This document shows, piece by piece, positions 8,976 to 29,076 of a stretch of 64,000 nucleotides of DNA. The first letter of the stretch is position 1, and each line of letters begins with the position of its first letter. The position numbers and the translations under genes are program-made. The notes under the pieces were generated by a model. The model searched no databases and was not told where the DNA came from. It saw only the letters and a list, made by a program, of their open reading frames with translations. The DNA is from a virus. The stretch lies in IMG/VR virus record IMGVR_UViG_3300048904_000313, positions 9,468-73,467 of that record, one strand, 5' to 3'.

Positions 8976-9523
8976 GCAGTGACGACCGGGAGGGTGGGGA
9001 GCGCACCGCGCTCCTCACCTTCCCGGGCTGTGACGGGGTGCCGTGGGAGGACAGTGGGGAGGGCGGCCAGTACGTGATGCTGGTCGTGCCTGAGCCCGAG
9101 GACCACGGCAACAACTGTCACGTGGACGTGTCCACGTACCTGCGGCTCCCTCGGCCGGCGAACCGCGTCACCACGGAGCTGACGTACCCCGACGTCTGTC
9201 ACACTCGGAACGATCTCTGGAGCCGCGACGGCTACCTGGACGGTTTCCGCGAGAGTGGCGACGTCTACAAGCACTTCAGCGACGCCGGTGACACGCGTCT
9301 CGCCGCCTGGGCGCTGCGCGCTCGCTCGGAGGGGGAGTTCAGCAAGCCGGTGCTGGCTGCCATCCTCCTTGGCAGTGACAGCCAGTCCAGGTGGTCCGAG
9401 CAGCACAGCGCGTACTGGACCGCCACGCACGCCGACCTGACGTTCCGTGGCCGGCTTCTCTACGACACGCTGAGGAGCTTCCACCAGACGGAGCCGCTTC
9501 TCCTGACCTTCCTGGACACCTGA
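8972..9523 (+). CDS. Hypothetical protein
   Basis: ORF track; GTGA-coupled. Confidence 0.7.
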   Translation: MSSDDREGGERTALLTFPGCDGVPWEDSGEGGQYVMLVVPEPEDHGNNCHVDVSTYLRLPRPANRVTTELTYPDVCHTRNDLWSRDGYLDGFRESGDVYKHFSDAGDTRLAAWALRARSEGEFSKPVLAAILLGSDSQSRWSEQHSAYWTATHADLTFRGRLLYDTLRSFHQTEPLLLTFLDT

Positions 9524-11820: not shown

Positions 11821-12234
11821 ATGGGACTGTTCGGAAGTGGCCGCAAGCCGGTGGTAGGTGGCGTGGTCTTAAGCTCCGACGGCGCGACGTTCCTCGCCGC
11901 GCAGCGGAGCTACCCACCCGCCCTGGCAGGGCGGTGGGAGCTCCCTGGCGGCAAGTCGGAGCCCGGTGAGCGGCCGCCGGACACGCTGAAGCGCGAGCTC
12001 CTGGAGGAGCTCGGCATCCGCGTCAACGTGACGGTGAAGCTCAGCGGCAGCGTCAACGTGCCCAACTCCGACCTGAAGCTTCAGGTCTGGGTGGCACGTC
12101 TGGTGAGCGGCCGGCCACGCCTCATCGAGGGGCATCAGCAGATCAGGTGGTTGACCAGGGACCAGTTGTGGTCAGTCAACTGGCTGGACTCCAACAAGTC
12201 GTTCGTCAGGCAGATCCCAGCTCACCTGACGTAG
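11821..12234 (+). CDS. Nudix (MutT-like) hydrolase
   Basis: Nudix box GRWELPGGKSEPGERPPDTLKRELLEELG; in-frame TTA codon at 11869. Confidence 0.9.
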   Translation: MGLFGSGRKPVVGGVVLSSDGATFLAAQRSYPPALAGRWELPGGKSEPGERPPDTLKRELLEELGIRVNVTVKLSGSVNVPNSDLKLQVWVARLVSGRPRLIEGHQQIRWLTRDQLWSVNWLDSNKSFVRQIPAHLT

Positions 12235-12267: not shown

Positions 12268-12308
12268 GGGTACCAGCAGGGAGGAACCGGAACAGGAAGA
12301 GGAAGACG

Positions 12309-12824
12309 ATGACCAACGCCGCGTACCAGAGCACCAGGACGACCGCTGCCGACATGAAGGTGGCGATCGCGTTTGAGAAGACGGTGCACATCCTCTACGG
12401 CGAGACCAAGGTCGACGGAGACGTCGCCACCGGCCTCGTCGAGTGGCGGGAGATCGAGCCGCACGAGGTCCGTCAGAGCAAGGACGGCAACCTCTACGTG
12501 GTTGCGATGTGCCGCCTCCGCGGCGAGCGTCGTCACTTCCGCCTGGACCGGATCAGCCACTACAACTCCGGTACACGCGGGTTCATCCTCCCCTGGCCCG
12601 AGAAGGCCGACCCGGAGGAGATCACCGACTGGTGGGGTCTCACCAGCCAGACCGGCACCACCGTGCTGCAGGTCGAGCTCAACACCGATGGCCAGCCCAA
12701 CCCCTACGCTCTGGTCCTGAAGAAGGCGCAGACGGAGTCGGGCAAGGTGCGGGCGGTGGTCAAGGCCGAGCGCGGCATCAGCATCCGACGGCTGCGTCGG
12801 AAGGACGTTCTCGCCTGGAGGTGA
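12309..12824 (+). CDS. WYL-domain protein
   Basis: I.Y......REIEPHEV......YVVAMCRLRGERRHFRLDRI matches the WYL consensus; no HTH seen. Confidence 0.8.
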   Translation: MTNAAYQSTRTTAADMKVAIAFEKTVHILYGETKVDGDVATGLVEWREIEPHEVRQSKDGNLYVVAMCRLRGERRHFRLDRISHYNSGTRGFILPWPEKADPEEITDWWGLTSQTGTTVLQVELNTDGQPNPYALVLKKAQTESGKVRAVVKAERGISIRRLRRKDVLAWR

Positions 12825-14954: not shown

Positions 14955-15028
14955 CCCCTTCCCGACCCTGGGCGGACGCTTCCCGGGGTGATAGATTGAT
15001 CCAGAACTGAGTGAAGGGAAGAGACCGC

Positions 15029-15994
15029 ATGGCACTCATTCTGCTTGAGGGTGTCGACGGCGGTGGCAAGTCCACGCTGGCCGACCGTATCGAGGAGACG
15101 TTCAAGTTCCTCACCGAGGACGACCCCAACCCGCCCCAGGTCGTCCGGATTCACAAGGGCAAGCCCACCCCCAACCTGGACGCGTTCCAGGAGTACGAGC
15201 TTCCCCTGGAGCGGTTCGACCTCCGCGACCTGATCCACTCAGCGCGAGACCTCGTCATCATGGACCGCTGGCACGCTGGCGAGATCCCCTACGGCACGAT
15301 CTACCGTGGCTCCAGCCGCCTGGACCAGGCCGGCCTCCTGCACGTGGAGCTCGTCCTCAGCGCGGTGGGCGCGGTGAAGGTGCTCGCTCAACCCGACGAG
15401 GTGGACCTCGTCAAGTTCCGTCTCAAGGCGCGGGGCGAGGACTTCCTGCAGCCTGAGCACGTGGACCGTGTCTGGCAGTGGTACGAGTCCCTGAAGAAGC
15501 TGTACGGCTACGTCCGCGCCAGTGACACCGCCCCGTCTGAGCTGATCCAGCTCGCCAGGGAGCGAGCCCTGGACTCTCATCGCACGGTGCCGCAGTCCTG
15601 GCCAGGGTACGTGGGCAGTCAGTTCCCGCGTCTTCTCCTGGTGGGAGACCAGCGGAACGACGGCCCCCGCGCTCGCCATGAGTTCGTCCGCGCCTTCACG
15701 CCGTGTCTCGGTGGCAGCTCCGCGGTCTACCTCCTCAACACGCTCAACCTGGCGGACATCCGTCGCGAGGTGGGCATCGTCAACGCTCACGAGCCGGGTG
15801 TGGATCTCACGCTGATCGACAAGATCGAGCCGCGGCCGGCCGTCGTGGCGCTTGGTCGCCTCGCGTCGAAGACGCTGACCGACGCCGGCGTGGAGCACGA
15901 GGCAGTGCCGCATCCTCAGTGGACGCGTCGCTTCCGCAACCAGAAGATGGGCTGGTATGCCCAGGAGATCAAGGAGGCCGCCGGATGGAAGTGA
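15029..15994 (+). CDS. dNMP (thymidylate-type) kinase fused to a uracil-DNA glycosylase-like domain
   Basis: N-terminal ILLEGVDGGGKSTLA and IMDRWH.GE..YG..YRG; C-terminal LLLVGDQRN, VVALGRLA, VPHPQW..RF. Confidence 0.75.
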   Translation: MALILLEGVDGGGKSTLADRIEETFKFLTEDDPNPPQVVRIHKGKPTPNLDAFQEYELPLERFDLRDLIHSARDLVIMDRWHAGEIPYGTIYRGSSRLDQAGLLHVELVLSAVGAVKVLAQPDEVDLVKFRLKARGEDFLQPEHVDRVWQWYESLKKLYGYVRASDTAPSELIQLARERALDSHRTVPQSWPGYVGSQFPRLLLVGDQRNDGPRARHEFVRAFTPCLGGSSAVYLLNTLNLADIRREVGIVNAHEPGVDLTLIDKIEPRPAVVALGRLASKTLTDAGVEHEAVPHPQWTRRFRNQKMGWYAQEIKEAAGWK

Positions 15995-16920
15995 TCGCCA
16001 AGACCGGCTCTGAGGCGTACGTGGAGCTGATGCAGGCTGTCCTCAACGAGGGTGAGCCGACGTCTCCACGTGGCCAGCTGACGTTTGAGCTGCTGAACGT
16101 CACCGTCCAGGTGGAGGACCTCGAGGAGGCGCACGTCCTCAACACGGCGAGGAAAGTCAACACCAAGATCCTCGCCACCGAGTACATGCACCTGCTCGGC
16201 GGCCTGAGCTCCCTTGAGCAGCTCGACCTCGCGTCCGGTGGGCGGTTCTCCCAGTTCGCGAACGGCGGCCGTCTCCTGGGCGCCTACGGCCCTCGAATCA
16301 GGCGTCAGCTGCCCAGGGTCGTTGAGCTTCTGAGCCGCGACCCCGACACCCGGCAGGCGGTCCTCTCCATCTGGACCGGCCGGGAGCACGAGGTCGACTC
16401 CAGGGACGTGCCCTGCACCCTGACCGTGCAGTTCCTCCTTCGCGACAACCAGCTTCACGTCCGCGTCTCCATGCGCTCTAATGATGTGGTGCTCGGCATT
16501 CCCTACGACTGGTGGATGTTCAGCCGGCTAGGCATGTCGGTGGCGTCGGCCCTGGGCGTGGAGACCGGCTCGTACACGCACACCGTTGGCTCCATGCACC
16601 TGTACGACCGCGACCTCGGCATCGCCAACGACGTGGAAGACATCGGCTTCCTCGCCAAGCCTCGCCTGGCGGTTCCCCCGGCTCTCACCTACGTCGGTGA
16701 CCGGGAGGACAAGGTCTTCCGAATGATCAAGCTGATGCAGGTGGCGGAGGACATCTGTCTCGACGACCCGTCGCACTGGGGCGCCGACTACCTCGGCATG
16801 GACTGGTACCACGGTCACGTGCCGCGGATCACCGACGTCAAGCAGTGTGTCAGCTGCCACTGCGTGGTCAAGACCGCTGAGATGTCGGAGCACCCACAGT
16901 TCTGCAAGGCCTGCAACTGA
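15985..16920 (+). CDS. Thymidylate-synthase-fold enzyme, dCMP hydroxymethylase-like (T4 gp42-like)
   Basis: DVPCTLTVQFLLRD...MRSNDVVLGIPYDWW; Asp (16507-16509) at the position that is Asn in dUMP-specific ThyA; HTVGSMHLY. Confidence 0.8.
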   Translation: MEVIAKTGSEAYVELMQAVLNEGEPTSPRGQLTFELLNVTVQVEDLEEAHVLNTARKVNTKILATEYMHLLGGLSSLEQLDLASGGRFSQFANGGRLLGAYGPRIRRQLPRVVELLSRDPDTRQAVLSIWTGREHEVDSRDVPCTLTVQFLLRDNQLHVRVSMRSNDVVLGIPYDWWMFSRLGMSVASALGVETGSYTHTVGSMHLYDRDLGIANDVEDIGFLAKPRLAVPPALTYVGDREDKVFRMIKLMQVAEDICLDDPSHWGADYLGMDWYHGHVPRITDVKQCVSCHCVVKTAEMSEHPQFCKACN

Positions 16921-17456
16921 TGACGTCGTGGCTGCAGCGAGAGCTGCTGCAACGCTATGACGGGAGGCAGATCTCGTGGGACGAGCTGTGGCTCAACGCC
17001 GCCTGCATGCTCGCCATGCGAAGTCGGTGTTCGCGCGACCGCGTTGGCGCCGTCATGGTGACCGACGACGATCGGGTCATCTCCGCCGGCTACAACGGCG
17101 CGCCGCCTACGTTCGCTGGTGACAAGAAGGGACCGTGTGCGGAGTGGTGTCCCCGCGCCATGCACACGCCTCTCGGCGAGCCTGGTAACCCCGGTTATCA
17201 GGACTGTCACGCCACGCACGCGGAGATGAACTGTCTCAAGCGAGCCCCCGCGGTCGAGGCCACGATGACCACGCGGCTGTACGTCAGTCGCATGCCATGC
17301 TATCCCTGCGCCAAGGAGATCGGCTCCACGTATGCGACGCACAACCTGCGTCAGCTCATCGTGCCGGTGAGCCATGAGGTCAACGTGCAGCACGGTGACG
17401 TCAGCCGGTCGGCGTCGTTCCTGGCTCAGTGTGGGATCAAGGTTCGCTTCGTCTAG
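16920..17456 (+). CDS. dCMP deaminase
   Basis: RSRC.R.RVGAV, SAGYNGAP, HAEMN, PCYPC. Confidence 0.9.
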   Translation: MTSWLQRELLQRYDGRQISWDELWLNAACMLAMRSRCSRDRVGAVMVTDDDRVISAGYNGAPPTFAGDKKGPCAEWCPRAMHTPLGEPGNPGYQDCHATHAEMNCLKRAPAVEATMTTRLYVSRMPCYPCAKEIGSTYATHNLRQLIVPVSHEVNVQHGDVSRSASFLAQCGIKVRFV

Positions 17457-25245: not shown

Positions 25246-25722
25246 GTGGAGTTCAACCAGTGGATCGCCGAGCAGCGCGCGTATCAGCGCGAGACGTTCG
25301 GCGTCGACTACACCCTGATGGCCAACGACGTGGACGCCCTCACGGCCTACGTCACGATGAACCTGAACGCGGCCTTCCTCGAGCTGGCGGAGACCCAGCA
25401 GGAGGTGCCGTGGAAGCCGTGGGCCGAGACGGAGGACCGCGCCAAGGTGTGGTCGACCGGCCGTGACAAGGTCGTCGGTGAGATCGTGGACGTGCTGATG
25501 TTCGTCGGCAACGTCCTCACCGCGGTCGACTGCTCCGACTCGGAGCTGGCCACCCGCTACGAGGCGAAGATGGCGGTCAACCGCCAGCGCCAGGCGGCGG
25601 GCTACGACAACACCAACAAGTGCGACGGCTGTGGCCGGGCGTTCGACGACCACGGCGTCAAGCTCGCCGGCGTGATGAACGGCAAGCCGCACTGCGAGAA
25701 GTGCTGGGAGGCGTTCGCGTGA
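25246..25722 (+). CDS. All-alpha dimeric dUTPase/dCTPase (T4 gp56-like) with C-terminal Zn ribbon
   Basis: ELAE...VPWKPW, GEIVDVLMFVGN, Y..K...N..RQ..GY; CDGC...CEKC; GTG at 25246 after AGGAGA. Confidence 0.8.
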   Translation: MEFNQWIAEQRAYQRETFGVDYTLMANDVDALTAYVTMNLNAAFLELAETQQEVPWKPWAETEDRAKVWSTGRDKVVGEIVDVLMFVGNVLTAVDCSDSELATRYEAKMAVNRQRQAAGYDNTNKCDGCGRAFDDHGVKLAGVMNGKPHCEKCWEAFA

Positions 25723-26738
25723 AGCTCCTCATGACGGGTACCACGAAGCAGCAGGTCGGGGGCGGCACCGCCCTCGGCTACGAGCCGGTGGCCGACCTCT
25801 TCGCTAAGGGCCTTCGCCTGGCCGGCCACGAGGTCGAGCACCGCAAGACCACCATCGGCGAGGACCTCGCCCCCTACGACGCGGTGCTGGTCGGTCTCGT
25901 GCCGTTCTTCTCCATCGCGTCCAACCAGCTCTACCACGCGCTCGACGTCATCGAGCGCGCGGAGAAGAGCGGTCACCCGCTGCTCTTCTTCGTGGACGAC
26001 TGGGCGTTCCCCCGCCTGGTGGCCAACCTCAACACTCACATCCGTCACCCCTGGCAGCTGACGAAGGAGTTCTTCAGCGGCAGGGCCAGCTACGACTGGG
26101 CGTGCTCCCGCAAGGAAGAGCTCCAGGTTCTCGTGGAGCGGATGCGCTATCAGCCGTGGGCACCCACCATCGTGCCGGCGTTCACCTGGGGTGACCATCA
26201 CAAGCTGACGGGGGAGGTGGAGATGATGACGCAGCCTCACTACGTCGACGTCTCCTCTCTCGCCATGGAGTACCCGCTCACCTTCCCGCCAGAGCGGGAG
26301 CGACGCTGGGTGCTCGGCACGATCAGCGACCAGCGGAAGTGGATGGACTCCCTCGGCCTCGGCTGGGAGGTCAATCACCTCGGGACGCGGGCCTCAAAGG
26401 CCCCCGAGAAGATGCCTGAGAGCCAGCTCGTGCAGCTCTACGCGGAGTCCTGGGGAGTTCTCAGCCCGCCGTACAAGCGGATCCTCGGGACAGGCTGGTG
26501 GCGCAACCGCGCCGTCTACGCCGCGAGGGCCGGCGCGATCCTGCTCAGCGACCCCGGTGAGATGCCGCAGCTGGGTGAGGCGTACCAGCTCAAGCCCGCC
26601 GAGGTCGAGGCCATGACGGACACCGAGCTCTGCAGCCTGGCGGCGGCACAGCGGCAGGCTCTCTTCAGCTGTCAGCCGTCCACCGGCCAGGTAGCGGCTC
26701 AGCTCGACGCGATCGTGCAGGGAGTGGTCAACAAGTGA
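25719..26738 (+). CDS. GT-B glycosyltransferase, DNA beta-glucosyltransferase-like
   Basis: Segments align by eye to T4 BGT: DLAPYDAVLV~DVNDYDRLIV, LLFFVDD~IYYLFTD, KMPESQLVQLYAES~KIPMNMVSEKNSQA, RNRAVYAARAGAILLSD~TLRVWETMASDAVMLID; similar length. Confidence 0.65.
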   Translation: MKLLMTGTTKQQVGGGTALGYEPVADLFAKGLRLAGHEVEHRKTTIGEDLAPYDAVLVGLVPFFSIASNQLYHALDVIERAEKSGHPLLFFVDDWAFPRLVANLNTHIRHPWQLTKEFFSGRASYDWACSRKEELQVLVERMRYQPWAPTIVPAFTWGDHHKLTGEVEMMTQPHYVDVSSLAMEYPLTFPPERERRWVLGTISDQRKWMDSLGLGWEVNHLGTRASKAPEKMPESQLVQLYAESWGVLSPPYKRILGTGWWRNRAVYAARAGAILLSDPGEMPQLGEAYQLKPAEVEAMTDTELCSLAAAQRQALFSCQPSTGQVAAQLDAIVQGVVNK

Positions 26739-27817
26739 AGTGCGTGGTGGTTGGCGCCGGCTTGGCCGGCGCCACCGCCGCTCGCAAGGTGAGCCTTCAC
26801 CCCGACTGGGAGGTCGAGGTCTACGAGGCAGCACCTGAGGTGGGCGGCAACCTGAGAGCCAGCTCCATTGCTGGCGTCCTGTACGAGCCCTTCGGGCCAC
26901 ACATCTTCCACACCAACAACCTCGTTGCCTGGGACTGGATCACCAGCTACGCCAAGCTGGTGCCGTATCAGCACACGGTCAAGAGTCAACTGGCCAACGG
27001 CCGCATCCTCTCCTGGCCTCCCCAGGTGGAGGAGCTGAAGACGCTGCCGGAGTGGTCGAGGATCGCCGCGGAGCTCGACGCGCGGCCGGCTTCTCCCTCC
27101 GCGGCGAACTTCGAGAGCTACGCCATCGAGGTCATGGGCGCCACGCTCTACGCCTGGTTCTGCGAGGAGTACACGCGCAAGCAGTGGGGGACCGACCCTC
27201 ACCTGCTGAGCTCCAGGTTCGCACCGAAGCGGATCGACCTTCGCACGGACGGCGATCGGCGACTCTTCCGCGATCAGGACCAGGGTTGGGTGGCGGGTGG
27301 CTTCCAGAACCTCGTCCACGCGCTGCTGCACAACATCCCGGTCCACACTGGACGAGAGCTCACTCTCTCCACGCTGCCGGCGGCGGACGCCTACGTCATT
27401 ACCGCGCCCCTGGACGACTTCCTCGGTGAGGAGCCCCTTCCCTGGCGCGGCGTCCGCAGTGAGGCCACCTACTACCCCGACCGCGTGGGTCGTTCGCTCC
27501 CCGCACCGGTGCTCAACCGGCCGGGCGCGGAGGTCCCGTGGACTCGGGAGGTGGAGACCAGGCAGATGGCGGGCCAGGACACACTGGGCACCGTCATCGT
27601 GAGGGAGTACCCTGGGGCCAGCACCAGGTACTACCCGGTGGACGACGTCGACGGGGAGAACCGTGCCCGGTGGCGGGCGCTGCGAGACGAGCTCAAGATC
27701 CACCTGCCCAACGCCCACCTGGCCGGTCGCCTGGCCAACTACGTCTACATCGACATGGACCAGGCCATCGTCCAGGCTCTCAACGCCGCAGGACGGATCA
27801 CGAGGGGAACAGAGTGA
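26735..27817 (+). CDS. glf: UDP-galactopyranose mutase homologue
   Basis: FAD motif VVGAGLAG, GGN, GPHIFHT, YTRKQWG, REYP, YYP, GRLANY.YIDMDQAI. Confidence 0.9.
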   Translation: MKCVVVGAGLAGATAARKVSLHPDWEVEVYEAAPEVGGNLRASSIAGVLYEPFGPHIFHTNNLVAWDWITSYAKLVPYQHTVKSQLANGRILSWPPQVEELKTLPEWSRIAAELDARPASPSAANFESYAIEVMGATLYAWFCEEYTRKQWGTDPHLLSSRFAPKRIDLRTDGDRRLFRDQDQGWVAGGFQNLVHALLHNIPVHTGRELTLSTLPAADAYVITAPLDDFLGEEPLPWRGVRSEATYYPDRVGRSLPAPVLNRPGAEVPWTREVETRQMAGQDTLGTVIVREYPGASTRYYPVDDVDGENRARWRALRDELKIHLPNAHLAGRLANYVYIDMDQAIVQALNAAGRITRGTE

Positions 27818-29076
27818 CCTACACGTTCATCGACAACCAGGGCTTCGCCGGCGGCTTCGCCTGTGGCGCCACCCAGGCGGGCTTCCACCTGGTCGGCAAG
27901 CTGGAGAAGCCGGGTGGCTTCGGCGTCCCGCTGATGGAGGCCAACCGCGTCTTCCTCGGCGACGACTGGGAGGCACAGGTCGGCGATCCCAGCAGCTGGA
28001 AGGCCGTCAAGGCCGACGTCATCGTTGCCACGCCACCCTGCAGCGGCTTCTCCTCCATGACAGCCGGCATCGCTGGCATGCACGGCATCGACGCGCCGAT
28101 CAACCAGTGCATGAAGGACCTGATCGGCTACGCCATCAAGGTCAAGCCCACGGTCGTCTGCATGGAGTCGGTCGGCCAGGCGTACACCAAGGGTCTCGAC
28201 CTGATGCGGCGGCTGCGTCAGACGCTCAGCGACGAGACGGGGCTCACGTATCACGCCACGCACGTGATGCAGAACAACCTCTCCACGGGTGGCTGCACCA
28301 ACCGCCGGCGGTACTTCCTCGTGTTGAGCCAGGTGCCCTTCGGCGTGGAACGCTACGACCTGAAGCGAGTCGCCACCGTGGGTGACGCGCTCGAGGACCT
28401 GCGCAACCTCGACATCACCTGGGACCCTCAGGCGTACGAGGACGAGCCGACCTGGTGGTCCGCGGAGCGTCGCTCCAAGACCGGCATGGTGGACGGCCAC
28501 ATGGACCCGCCCGACGGCCCGTACAAGCGTCGCATCTACGACATGGCGCAGAGCCCCGACGCCGTGGAGTGGAAGGCGGGCGAGGGCGACACGGACATGC
28601 TCCGTCGCTGGTACGAGACGCACGGCTCGCTCCCCGACTCCTGGGACTACGTCTCCGCTGGCAAGGAGAAGAGCCGTACTGAACAGATGGTGGAGCGCGG
28701 CTTCAAGATGGGCGGCTTCTCCAAGCCGAAGCACTGGCCGTGGGACGTCCCAGGCCGCGTGATCAACGGCTCCGGCCCGATCCAGGTGTGGCACCCCGAC
28801 GGCCGCTTCTCCACGCACCGGGAGATCGCTCGCCTGATGGGCTTCCCCGACGACTGGGTGGTCGGCACTGCGAAGGACACCCGCGCCCTCACCTCCTACT
28901 GGGGCAAGGGCACGTCCGTCTCGCCGGCGAAGTGGCTGATGGACTGGGTGCGCAACAGCCTGGACGGCAACCCTGGTTCCTACGTAGGCGAGGAACTGGC
29001 GGCAGGTGACCGCTTCATCACGGTCGCCCCGGACTGGAAGCCGGTCTGGGAGGCACAGACCGCCACGGCAGCCTGA
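27814..29076 (+). CDS. Divergent DNA cytosine-C5 methyltransferase (Dcm-like)
   Basis: Motif I-like QGFAGGF, motif IV PPCSGFS, motif VI variant MESV, motif VIII RRRYF, motif IX-X THREIARLMGFPDDW...GKG. Confidence 0.75.
   Translation: MTYTFIDNQGFAGGFACGATQAGFHLVGKLEKPGGFGVPLMEANRVFLGDDWEAQVGDPSSWKAVKADVIVATPPCSGFSSMTAGIAGMHGIDAPINQCMKDLIGYAIKVKPTVVCMESVGQAYTKGLDLMRRLRQTLSDETGLTYHATHVMQNNLSTGGCTNRRRYFLVLSQVPFGVERYDLKRVATVGDALEDLRNLDITWDPQAYEDEPTWWSAERRSKTGMVDGHMDPPDGPYKRRIYDMAQSPDAVEWKAGEGDTDMLRRWYETHGSLPDSWDYVSAGKEKSRTEQMVERGFKMGGFSKPKHWPWDVPGRVINGSGPIQVWHPDGRFSTHREIARLMGFPDDWVVGTAKDTRALTSYWGKGTSVSPAKWLMDWVRNSLDGNPGSYVGEELAAGDRFITVAPDWKPVWEAQTATAA

Follow-up and report, generated by a model that had tools for sequence, protein, structure and literature searches.

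A nucleotide kinase fused to a uracil-DNA-glycosylase-like domain in a predicted hydroxymethylcytosine pathway of uncultured phages and Bacillus phage G

Why would a phage carry a uracil-DNA-glycosylase (UDG)-like domain on the end of a nucleotide kinase? The question is raised by P0001, a protein of 321 amino acids (aa) encoded in a 64,000-nucleotide stretch of viral DNA, positions 9,468 to 73,467 of the IMG/VR record IMGVR_UViG_3300048904_000313 (hereafter the window). A first-pass annotation, made from the sequence without database searches, had described the gene as one open reading frame (ORF) that joins a thymidylate-kinase P-loop domain to a UDG family-4/5-like fold and lies directly before a hydroxymethylase gene. 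The reading favored here, to which we give a probability of approximately 0.45, is that P0001 combines the deoxynucleoside monophosphate (dNMP) kinase of a cytosine modification pathway with a DNA glycosylase for uracil (U) or 5-hydroxymethyluracil (hmU), as predicted from sequences and structural models. The analysis shows that the gene is intact, that each half has its expected fold, that fusion and pocket residues are conserved, in which gene context P0001 lies, and that the genome has no other kinase or UDG match; the substrates of the kinase, DNA binding, the activity and substrate of the glycosylase, and the reason for the fusion are inferred.

The fusion was analyzed at the level of its distribution. 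A word-index search returned 52 full-length homologues with 30–88% identity to P0001, and an exhaustive search in which only the C-terminal half was used yielded 635 cluster representatives; of the 150 listed, nearly all measured approximately 300–350 aa and carried the domain at the C-terminus. Both domains were present in 207 of 219 collected relatives. The proteins with only the UDG-like domain among these 219 were short, mostly began inside the kinase, and look like fragments, and the word-index search found no free-standing homologue of the domain in the size range of 74–238 aa. The sole full-length match to P0001 among 50,697 phage records was in the metagenome-assembled phage DSL-LC01, where the gene order is the same; the 10 kb around the gene gave no megablast match in these records. 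That two separate genes had been joined by a sequencing or assembly error, which the first-pass annotation named as one of two findings that would overturn it, was ruled out by the occurrence of the same architecture in relatives from many samples. More than 200 independent sequences have the two halves in one protein, and these fusions come from IMG/VR contigs as well as from phage DSL-LC01 and the cultured Bacillus phage G, so the probability of such an artifact is negligible. These results demonstrate that the kinase-UDG fusion is real and widespread in uncultured phages, and comparison of the sequences indicates that it is old.

The assignment of the C-terminal half to the UDG superfamily is carried by its modeled structure. 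The AF2 model of the whole protein reached a pLDDT of 93 and a pTM of 0.92, and the C-terminal half modeled alone reached a pLDDT of 95. In structural comparison by VIA, this half aligned with 2d3y (family 5, Z 11.5), 1l9g (family 4, Z 10.9), and UdgX (Z 10.7), followed by the UDG domain of the phiLo PolA (Z 9.7) and then by SMUG, MUG, and TDG. The top 13 entries of the VIA list were all members of the UDG superfamily, the vaccinia E9-A20-D4 holoenzyme was also among the structural matches, and Foldseek agreed with the UDG fold (E 6e-6). The model has the alpha/beta/alpha arrangement with a four-stranded parallel sheet, and the motifs are placed where beta1 and beta4 end C-terminally; strands E17-21, E63-67, and E106-108 are followed by the motif-A, Asn, and motif-B stretches, respectively. 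Modeling thus bore out the family-4/5-like fold proposed for this half. The motifs on which that proposal had been based, LLLVGDQRN, VVALG, and PHP, lie at residues 202–210, 272–276, and 294–296.

Family 4 and 5 UDGs and UdgX (1l9g, 1ui0, 2d3y, 6ail) share this fold with Z 10.7–11.5 over approximately 125 of 136 residues, and they have equivalents of the motif-A acid, the stacking Phe, the beta2 Asn, and the motif-B His of P0001. They differ in size, with 190–220 aa compared to approximately 136 aa for the P0001 domain, and the latter has no 4Fe-4S cluster, no detectable sequence similarity to them, a motif A of the form G-D-x-R-N/G, and a motif B reading H-P-Q. The alteration of motif A noted in the first-pass annotation was confirmed, as G-D-Q-R-N stands where family 4 has G-E-A/G-P-G (G-E-A-P-G in the annotation) and family 5 has G-L-A-P-G/A. 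Because no cysteine column is conserved in the alignment of the C-terminal half, in which residues 186–321 of P0001 hold a single cysteine (C226, in a column of Y/V/W/C), an Fe-S cluster is not expected. As modeled, the C-terminal half is a minimal UDG-superfamily domain without Fe-S cluster. The half had no Pfam or PHROG match of its own, and the UDG profile PF03167 reached E ≤ 1 in just five of 48 members of the clade, with a best value of 3.5e-4. Alignment by hhalign of the C-half profile with a Pfam-positive stand-alone phage UDG (L073) was not significant, though the LG and HP motifs were paired.

A bridge at the sequence level was provided by Bacillus phage G, to which a structural search of viral models led. 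Its gp315, named thymidylate kinase in RefSeq, is a two-domain protein like P0001, and hhalign aligned it to the P0001 family with a probability of 98.9% (E 2e-17) over 280 columns spanning both domains. In gp315 both Pfam profiles exceeded their cut-offs, UDG with 48.2 bits (cut-off 24.3) and Thymidylate_kin with 28.9 bits, and the protein matched PHROG 761 end to end (E 3e-67). It is approximately 23% identical to P0001. The motifs of its UDG half (A-Q-N-P-G-G, T-N, H-P-A) are closer to the canonical ones, and gp315 passes the Pfam UDG cut-off, which P0001 does not. The Pfam match and the two-domain alignment of gp315 therefore connect the P0001 clade to the UDG superfamily by sequence, beside the fold. 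The end-to-end match further indicates that PHROG 761 consists partly of such fusions, labeled there only as kinases.

Conservation of the UDG-like pocket was evaluated in 218 sequences. G206 was kept in 97%, D/E207 in 95%, F223 in 96%, N252 in 96%, and H295 and P296 in 97% each; motif B is followed by Q, Y/W, R, R, and F, with R301/F302 kept in 95–96%. The mean pairwise identity was 0.42 for the UDG-like half, 0.45 for the kinase half, and 0.21 for the linker. The alignment indicates that the UDG-like pocket is under selection. In family 4 UDGs, the Phe stacks and the Asn usually reads the Watson–Crick face of the base, and in the glycosylase Brig1 this Asn is replaced by Glu and a cytosine derivative is taken (PMC11078745). 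The conserved Asn of the P0001 domain, together with the Glu exchange in Brig1, points to a pocket suited to uracil-type rather than cytosine-type bases. Brig1 itself is an anti-phage enzyme of UDG fold that excises alpha-glucosyl-hydroxymethylcytosine, showing that UDG folds can be retargeted to bases derived from hydroxymethylcytosine (hmC); its description sets it apart from the P0001 domain as a host defense protein with a Glu reader, in place of the uracil-type Asn, and an enlarged pocket (PMC11078745). In four loci (L032:5956-6858, L025:1486-2334, L052:5968-6936, and L053:5947-6882), an intact kinase half is followed by a shortened or decayed UDG-like half in which the Asn, the motif-B His, or both are missing.

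The first-pass annotation had offered three functions for this domain: removal of U or hmU, recognition of the modified base, or an inactive DNA-binding module. The data do not settle the choice among them, but the inactive option is disfavored because D/E207, F223, N252, and H295 are kept so widely and because the domain has evolved no faster than the kinase. A precedent is found in the family-A polymerases of phages phiLo, YerA41, and SP-15 (PMC13697223). The pyrimidines of these phages are modified, and a family-4-like UDG fold is likewise joined there to an enzyme related to replication. The phiLo domain is catalytically active, and its catalytic residues, the motif-A Glu and the motif-B His, correspond to D207 and H295 of P0001 (PMC13697223). 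The partner in those proteins is a polymerase and the modified base is thymine, whereas in P0001 the partner is a nucleotide kinase and the pathway is cytosine-based.

A role in DNA without excision was also considered. The UDG-like domain might be a non-catalytic DNA-binding or base-reading module that anchors the kinase and the enzymes of dNTP synthesis to replicating phage DNA, which we regard as unlikely, though it ranks second after the glycosylase. The charge of the protein is compatible with such an anchor, as the UDG-like half of P0001 is basic (isoelectric point 9.3) and the kinase half acidic (5.4), and the UDG-like half is the more basic one in 162 of 176 proteins. An anchor would also be consistent with the failure to find any clearly free-standing form of the domain outside fusions with the kinase, with the altered motif A, and with the survival in some lineages of variants that lack the Asn or the His. 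UDG folds joined to replication proteins are known from the phiLo and YerA41 polymerases and from the vaccinia E9-A20-D4 complex, and in poxviruses the UDG D4 acts as a processivity subunit of the polymerase. On the other hand, the catalytic-type acid and His are also kept in 95–97% of the sequences, although a domain that only tethers would have no use for them, and the UDG domain of the phiLo polymerase is an active enzyme.

The pathway in which P0001 is placed was deduced from its neighbors. The ThyA-like enzyme encoded directly downstream, where a hydroxymethylase had been annotated, has the CMP hydroxymethylase MilA as its best match in the PDB (E 1.3e-25) and indeed bears a hydroxymethylase signature, with Asp at the positions of E. 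coli N177 and L143 and with D169 kept. According to Lee et al. (2026; PMC13326640), N177D marks dCMP as the substrate, an acidic residue at L143 accompanies hydroxymethylation, and D169N marks 5-hydroxy-dCMP synthases. The neighbor is therefore read as a synthase of hydroxymethyl-dCMP (hm-dCMP). With a profile of the kinase family, 65 IMG/VR loci were recovered irrespective of the presence of the UDG-like domain, and a ThyA homologue lies directly downstream of the kinase in most of them. All aligned ThyA homologues have Asp at N177 and keep D169, and 64 of 67 have Asp at L143; a 5-hydroxycytosine synthase was rejected, since D169N is absent from all of them. The genome also encodes a ThyX (PF02511, E 8e-46) outside the window (G000:C1:96433-97107, L070), so the ThyA-like gene beside the kinase is not needed for dTMP synthesis. 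The Pfam and MilA alignments of the ThyA-like enzyme stop near residue 210–219 of 309, and its tail holds a C-x2-C-x-C ... C-x2-C pattern (16846-16917) that resembles a small zinc ribbon. Complex prediction of P0001 with this neighbor gave a score of 0.00, which is uninformative either way and was given no weight.

The third gene of this conserved run encodes a dCMP deaminase, which is likely the source of uracil-type nucleotides. A deaminase was found within 6 kb in 21 of 23 loci with the fused form compared to 14 of 42 loci with the kinase only (Fisher p 6e-6, overstated as the loci are related). The window also encodes PolA, a NUDIX hydrolase, a dUTPase_2-family enzyme, a UDP-galactopyranose mutase, and a C5 cytosine methyltransferase; PolA has only polymerase and exonuclease domains according to Pfam. 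Taken together, the phage of P0001 appears to replace cytosine with hmC. The predicted logic is that of the T4 pathway (gp42, gp1, gp56, and cd), in which an enzyme with hm-dCMP synthase signature and a dedicated kinase go together with a dCTPase/dUTPase-family enzyme, a dCMP deaminase, and sugar-related genes. T4 differs in that its kinase gp1 is not homologous to P0001 by phmmer and that it has no UDG-like component. In phage G, gp315 is clustered with a dCMP deaminase and with a ThyA homologue that shows this Asp signature too, as well as with two alpha-glucosyltransferase homologues; the cluster comprises gp315–gp319 (L074:15928-19495), with gp306 and gp313 in addition. This gene content predicts that phage G DNA carries glycosylated hmC. 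No report of the base composition of phage G and no paper on the function of gp315 were found in the literature.

The N-terminal half of P0001 was assigned to the thymidylate kinase (TMK) fold, as had been proposed. It matched phrog_761, labeled thymidylate kinase, with E 1.6e-12 and, in a phmmer search of PDB sequences, YorR of phage SPbeta with E 5.6e-4. Over approximately 160 residues, VIA gave Z 14.1 to YorR (2axp) and Z about 12–13.4 to six TMKs, the highest of which was that of M. tuberculosis. E7, D10, G13, K14, D79, R80, R131, R135, and G136 were invariant in 34 homologues, and W81 was present in at least 90% of them. P0001 did not reach the threshold of PF02223 (14.1 bits compared to a cut-off of 27 bits, with the P-loop alone covered) and scored far under the cut-offs of the NCBIfam dTMP kinase models. 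The kinase half is thus a relative of TMK and not a canonical Tmk. Its closest relatives, YorR (PDB 2axp, 3kb2) and the bacterial TMKs, have a TMK-type P-loop, a DR(Y/W) motif, and LID arginines in common with it but are single-domain proteins. We know of no established substrate for YorR.

P0001 was the sole nucleotide-kinase candidate found in the 107,550-bp genome, being the only one of four ORFs with a Walker A motif that matched the kinase profile, and a phmmer search of all ORFs of the genome found no homologue of T4 gp1 at E ≤ 10. Because there is neither a gp1 homologue nor another ORF that matches the kinase profile, P0001 would be the only visible candidate for the hm-dCMP kinase that the pathway needs. 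These data also bear on a different role for the P-loop domain, in which P0001 would be a DNA-base kinase: hmC or hmU would be turned out of the helix by the UDG-like domain, and the P-loop domain would phosphorylate its hydroxymethyl group. A base-flipping domain beside a kinase would be mechanistically sensible, and 5-HMUDK acts on the base in polymeric DNA during thymidine hypermodification. However, P0001 has TMK-specific motifs and Z scores of 12–14 to TMK and YorR, its kinase-only relatives adjoin T4-gp42-like genes, the genome holds no other kinase to make hm-dCDP, and the neighboring genes scanned against Pfam include no aGPT-Pplase-type transferase. A DNA-base kinase is thus very improbable. 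Membership in the 5-HMUDK family was rejected, as hhalign to M6 gp54 covered 26 columns, the P-loop alone, at a probability of 72%.

The partners with which this kinase family is found prompt one to ask whether the UDG-like domain acts on DNA at all. The 696-aa metagenomic protein P0107 (L004:2032-4122) carries the kinase, the UDG-like, and the ThyA-like domains on a single polypeptide, and a separate ThyX gene lies 0.4 kb upstream on the same contig. At L065:3419-4396, the same kinase family is fused not to the UDG-like domain but to a PRA-PH/MazG-like NTP pyrophosphatase (PF01503, E 1e-9). The kinase family thus seems to collect different pathway partners. Another kinase homologue (L046:5986-6822) has a C-terminal extension with a DFDGCL stretch reminiscent of HAD phosphatases and nucleotidases; an HAD-like assignment of this motif was unsupported by Pfam.

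Fusions to a PRA-PH/MazG-like domain and to a ThyA-like enzyme would be expected if the UDG-like domain also acted on free nucleotides, either as a pyrimidine-mononucleotide site that selects or regulates the kinase substrate or as an N-glycosidase that destroys dUMP or hydroxymethyl-dUMP (hm-dUMP) produced by the deaminase encoded nearby. Such a function agrees with the strict linkage of the domain to the kinase and the ThyA-like gene, apart from which it never seems to occur, and with the association of the fused form with dCMP deaminase. The pTM of 0.92 suggests a fixed arrangement of the two domains, UdgX has been crystallized with dUMP (6ajp), and human DNPH1 sanitizes hm-dUMP from the nucleotide pool. 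Against it, the basic charge and the loop rich in Arg that follows motif B are features that suit DNA, and we know of no UDG-superfamily enzyme that hydrolyzes mononucleotides. An action on free nucleotides is accordingly ranked third and appears rather improbable. In its strongest form, which we consider less probable still, the domain would be the first UDG-fold enzyme of the nucleotide pool, held against the kinase and binding or hydrolyzing dUMP or hm-dUMP such that only hm-dCMP and dTMP are passed on.

In the glycosylase reading that we rank first, the ThyA-like hydroxymethylase would make hm-dCMP, and the kinase domain would most likely turn it into hm-dCDP and probably also phosphorylate dTMP to dTDP, functionally standing in for the non-homologous gp1 of T4. 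The UDG-like domain, which keeps a base pocket of the family-4 type, would flip uracil-type bases from the phage DNA and then excise them. Candidate substrates are U, or hmU that arises by deamination of hmC or is incorporated via hm-dUMP or dUMP from the co-encoded dCMP deaminase. The fusion to the kinase may hold this surveillance physically inside the machinery of precursor synthesis and replication. The glycosylase reading is supported by the intact catalytic-type residues, the basic charge, the precedent of the polymerase-fused UDGs, and the deaminase association. No UDG match other than P0001 was found in the genome.

Several observations weigh against this reading. Motif A is non-canonical, with no more than its Gly (97%) and its acid (D/E, 95%) kept, and the position of the UNG Asp or MUG Asn varies among Q, R, K, V, and E in the 218 sequences. 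The Pfam scan did not match P0001 to PF03167, and a profile of the C-terminal half found no solved UDG among PDB sequences. No clearly free-standing form of this UDG-like clade was found, which is unusual for a self-sufficient repair enzyme, and the persistence of decayed variants without the Asn or His in some lineages indicates that a structural role can be enough. The domain is dispensed with by phages that have this pathway and the kinase only, and the other fusion partners of the kinase family are nucleotide-pool enzymes, hinting that the UDG-like domain could act on free nucleotides. A stand-alone UDG as a complement showed no pattern, as PF03167 was matched in one of five records with the fused form and in none of five with the kinase only.

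The features of the gene and its two downstream neighbors are summarized in Table 1.

Table 1. Coordinates in the window of the kinase/UDG-like fusion gene, its domains and motifs, and the two genes downstream
Feature	Position	Strand	Basis
Kinase/UDG-like fusion gene (protein P0001), 321 aa	15029..15994 (stop codon included)	+	One uninterrupted ORF
Purine-rich ribosome-binding stretch GAAGGGAAGAG	15013..15023	+	Read from sequence; 5 nt upstream of ATG 15029
YorR/thymidylate-kinase-like dNMP kinase domain, residues 1-185	15029..15583	+	PHROG match, YorR sequence match, structural alignment, conserved motifs
P-loop LEGVDGGGKST, residues 6-16	K14 codon 15068-15070	+	TMK-type P-loop including P-loop Asp
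DRW motif (D79, R80, W81)	15263-15271	+	
LID arginines R131, R135	within 15029..15583	+	Conserved in homologues
Compact UDG-superfamily domain, residues 186-321	15584..15991	+	AF2 model, VIA, residue conservation
Motif A G206-D207-Q-R-N	15644-15658	+	Residues equated with UDG motif A
Stacking F223	15695-15697	+	Equated with UDG stacking Phe
N252, end of beta2	15782-15784	+	Equated with UDG base-reading Asn
Motif B H295-P-Q	15911-15919	+	Third residue Gln, not Ser/Ala
R301-F302	15929-15934	+	Conserved in 218 sequences
ThyA-fold enzyme, hm-dCMP-synthase signature, Cys-rich C-terminal tail	15985..16920	+	PF00303 E 1e-25; MilA match
dCMP deaminase, third gene of the kinase-UDG / ThyA-like / deaminase run	16920..17456	+	PF00383 E 5e-13

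The start of P0001 is likely the ATG at 15029 and not the GTG at 15011, since the stretch GAAGGGAAGAG lies at a suitable place for the former and homologues begin at the equivalent Met. The stop codon, a TGA at 15992-15994, lies beyond the ATG (15985) of the ThyA homologue gene, which is preceded by its own ribosome-binding stretch, AAGGAGG. The overlap of the two genes suggests translational coupling. Upstream of the module, 11821-12234 and 12300-12824 encode the NUDIX hydrolase and a WYL-domain protein. The second-best NCBIfam match of the NUDIX hydrolase, which did not reach the cut-off, was to a model of pyrimidine (deoxy)nucleoside triphosphate diphosphatase. The two proteins could possibly serve in clearing the dCTP pool and in regulation. 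Farther downstream, 25246-29076 encodes in a row the dUTPase_2-family enzyme, a 339-aa protein, the UDP-galactopyranose mutase, and the C5 cytosine methyltransferase; the 339-aa protein, taken for a glycosyltransferase in the first-pass annotation, had no Pfam match.

Both folds of P0001 are of kinds already known, and the fusion architecture sits unremarked in PHROG 761 and RefSeq under the name thymidylate kinase. No paper on a kinase-UDG-like fusion was found in the literature, and the genome paper of DSL-LC01 does not discuss the fusion gene. What is added here is the recognition of gp315 as a cultured, Pfam-positive member, the conservation at residue level, the deaminase association, the alternative partners, and the decayed variants. 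The database label of thymidylate kinase hides a second domain that is present in many uncultured viruses of actinophage-like type and in phage G, a cultured jumbo phage, and an hmC-type pathway would have a dedicated kinase of another family than T4 gp1. New enzymology and epigenetic sequencing tools both draw on the hypermodification pathways of phage DNA. Should the UDG-like domain prove to be a U/hmU glycosylase with activity, it would be among the smallest UDGs known and, after the phiLo-type polymerases, a second case of base-excision surveillance wired directly into phage replication. If it instead acts on nucleotides or merely tethers the kinase, the known repertoire of the UDG fold would be extended.

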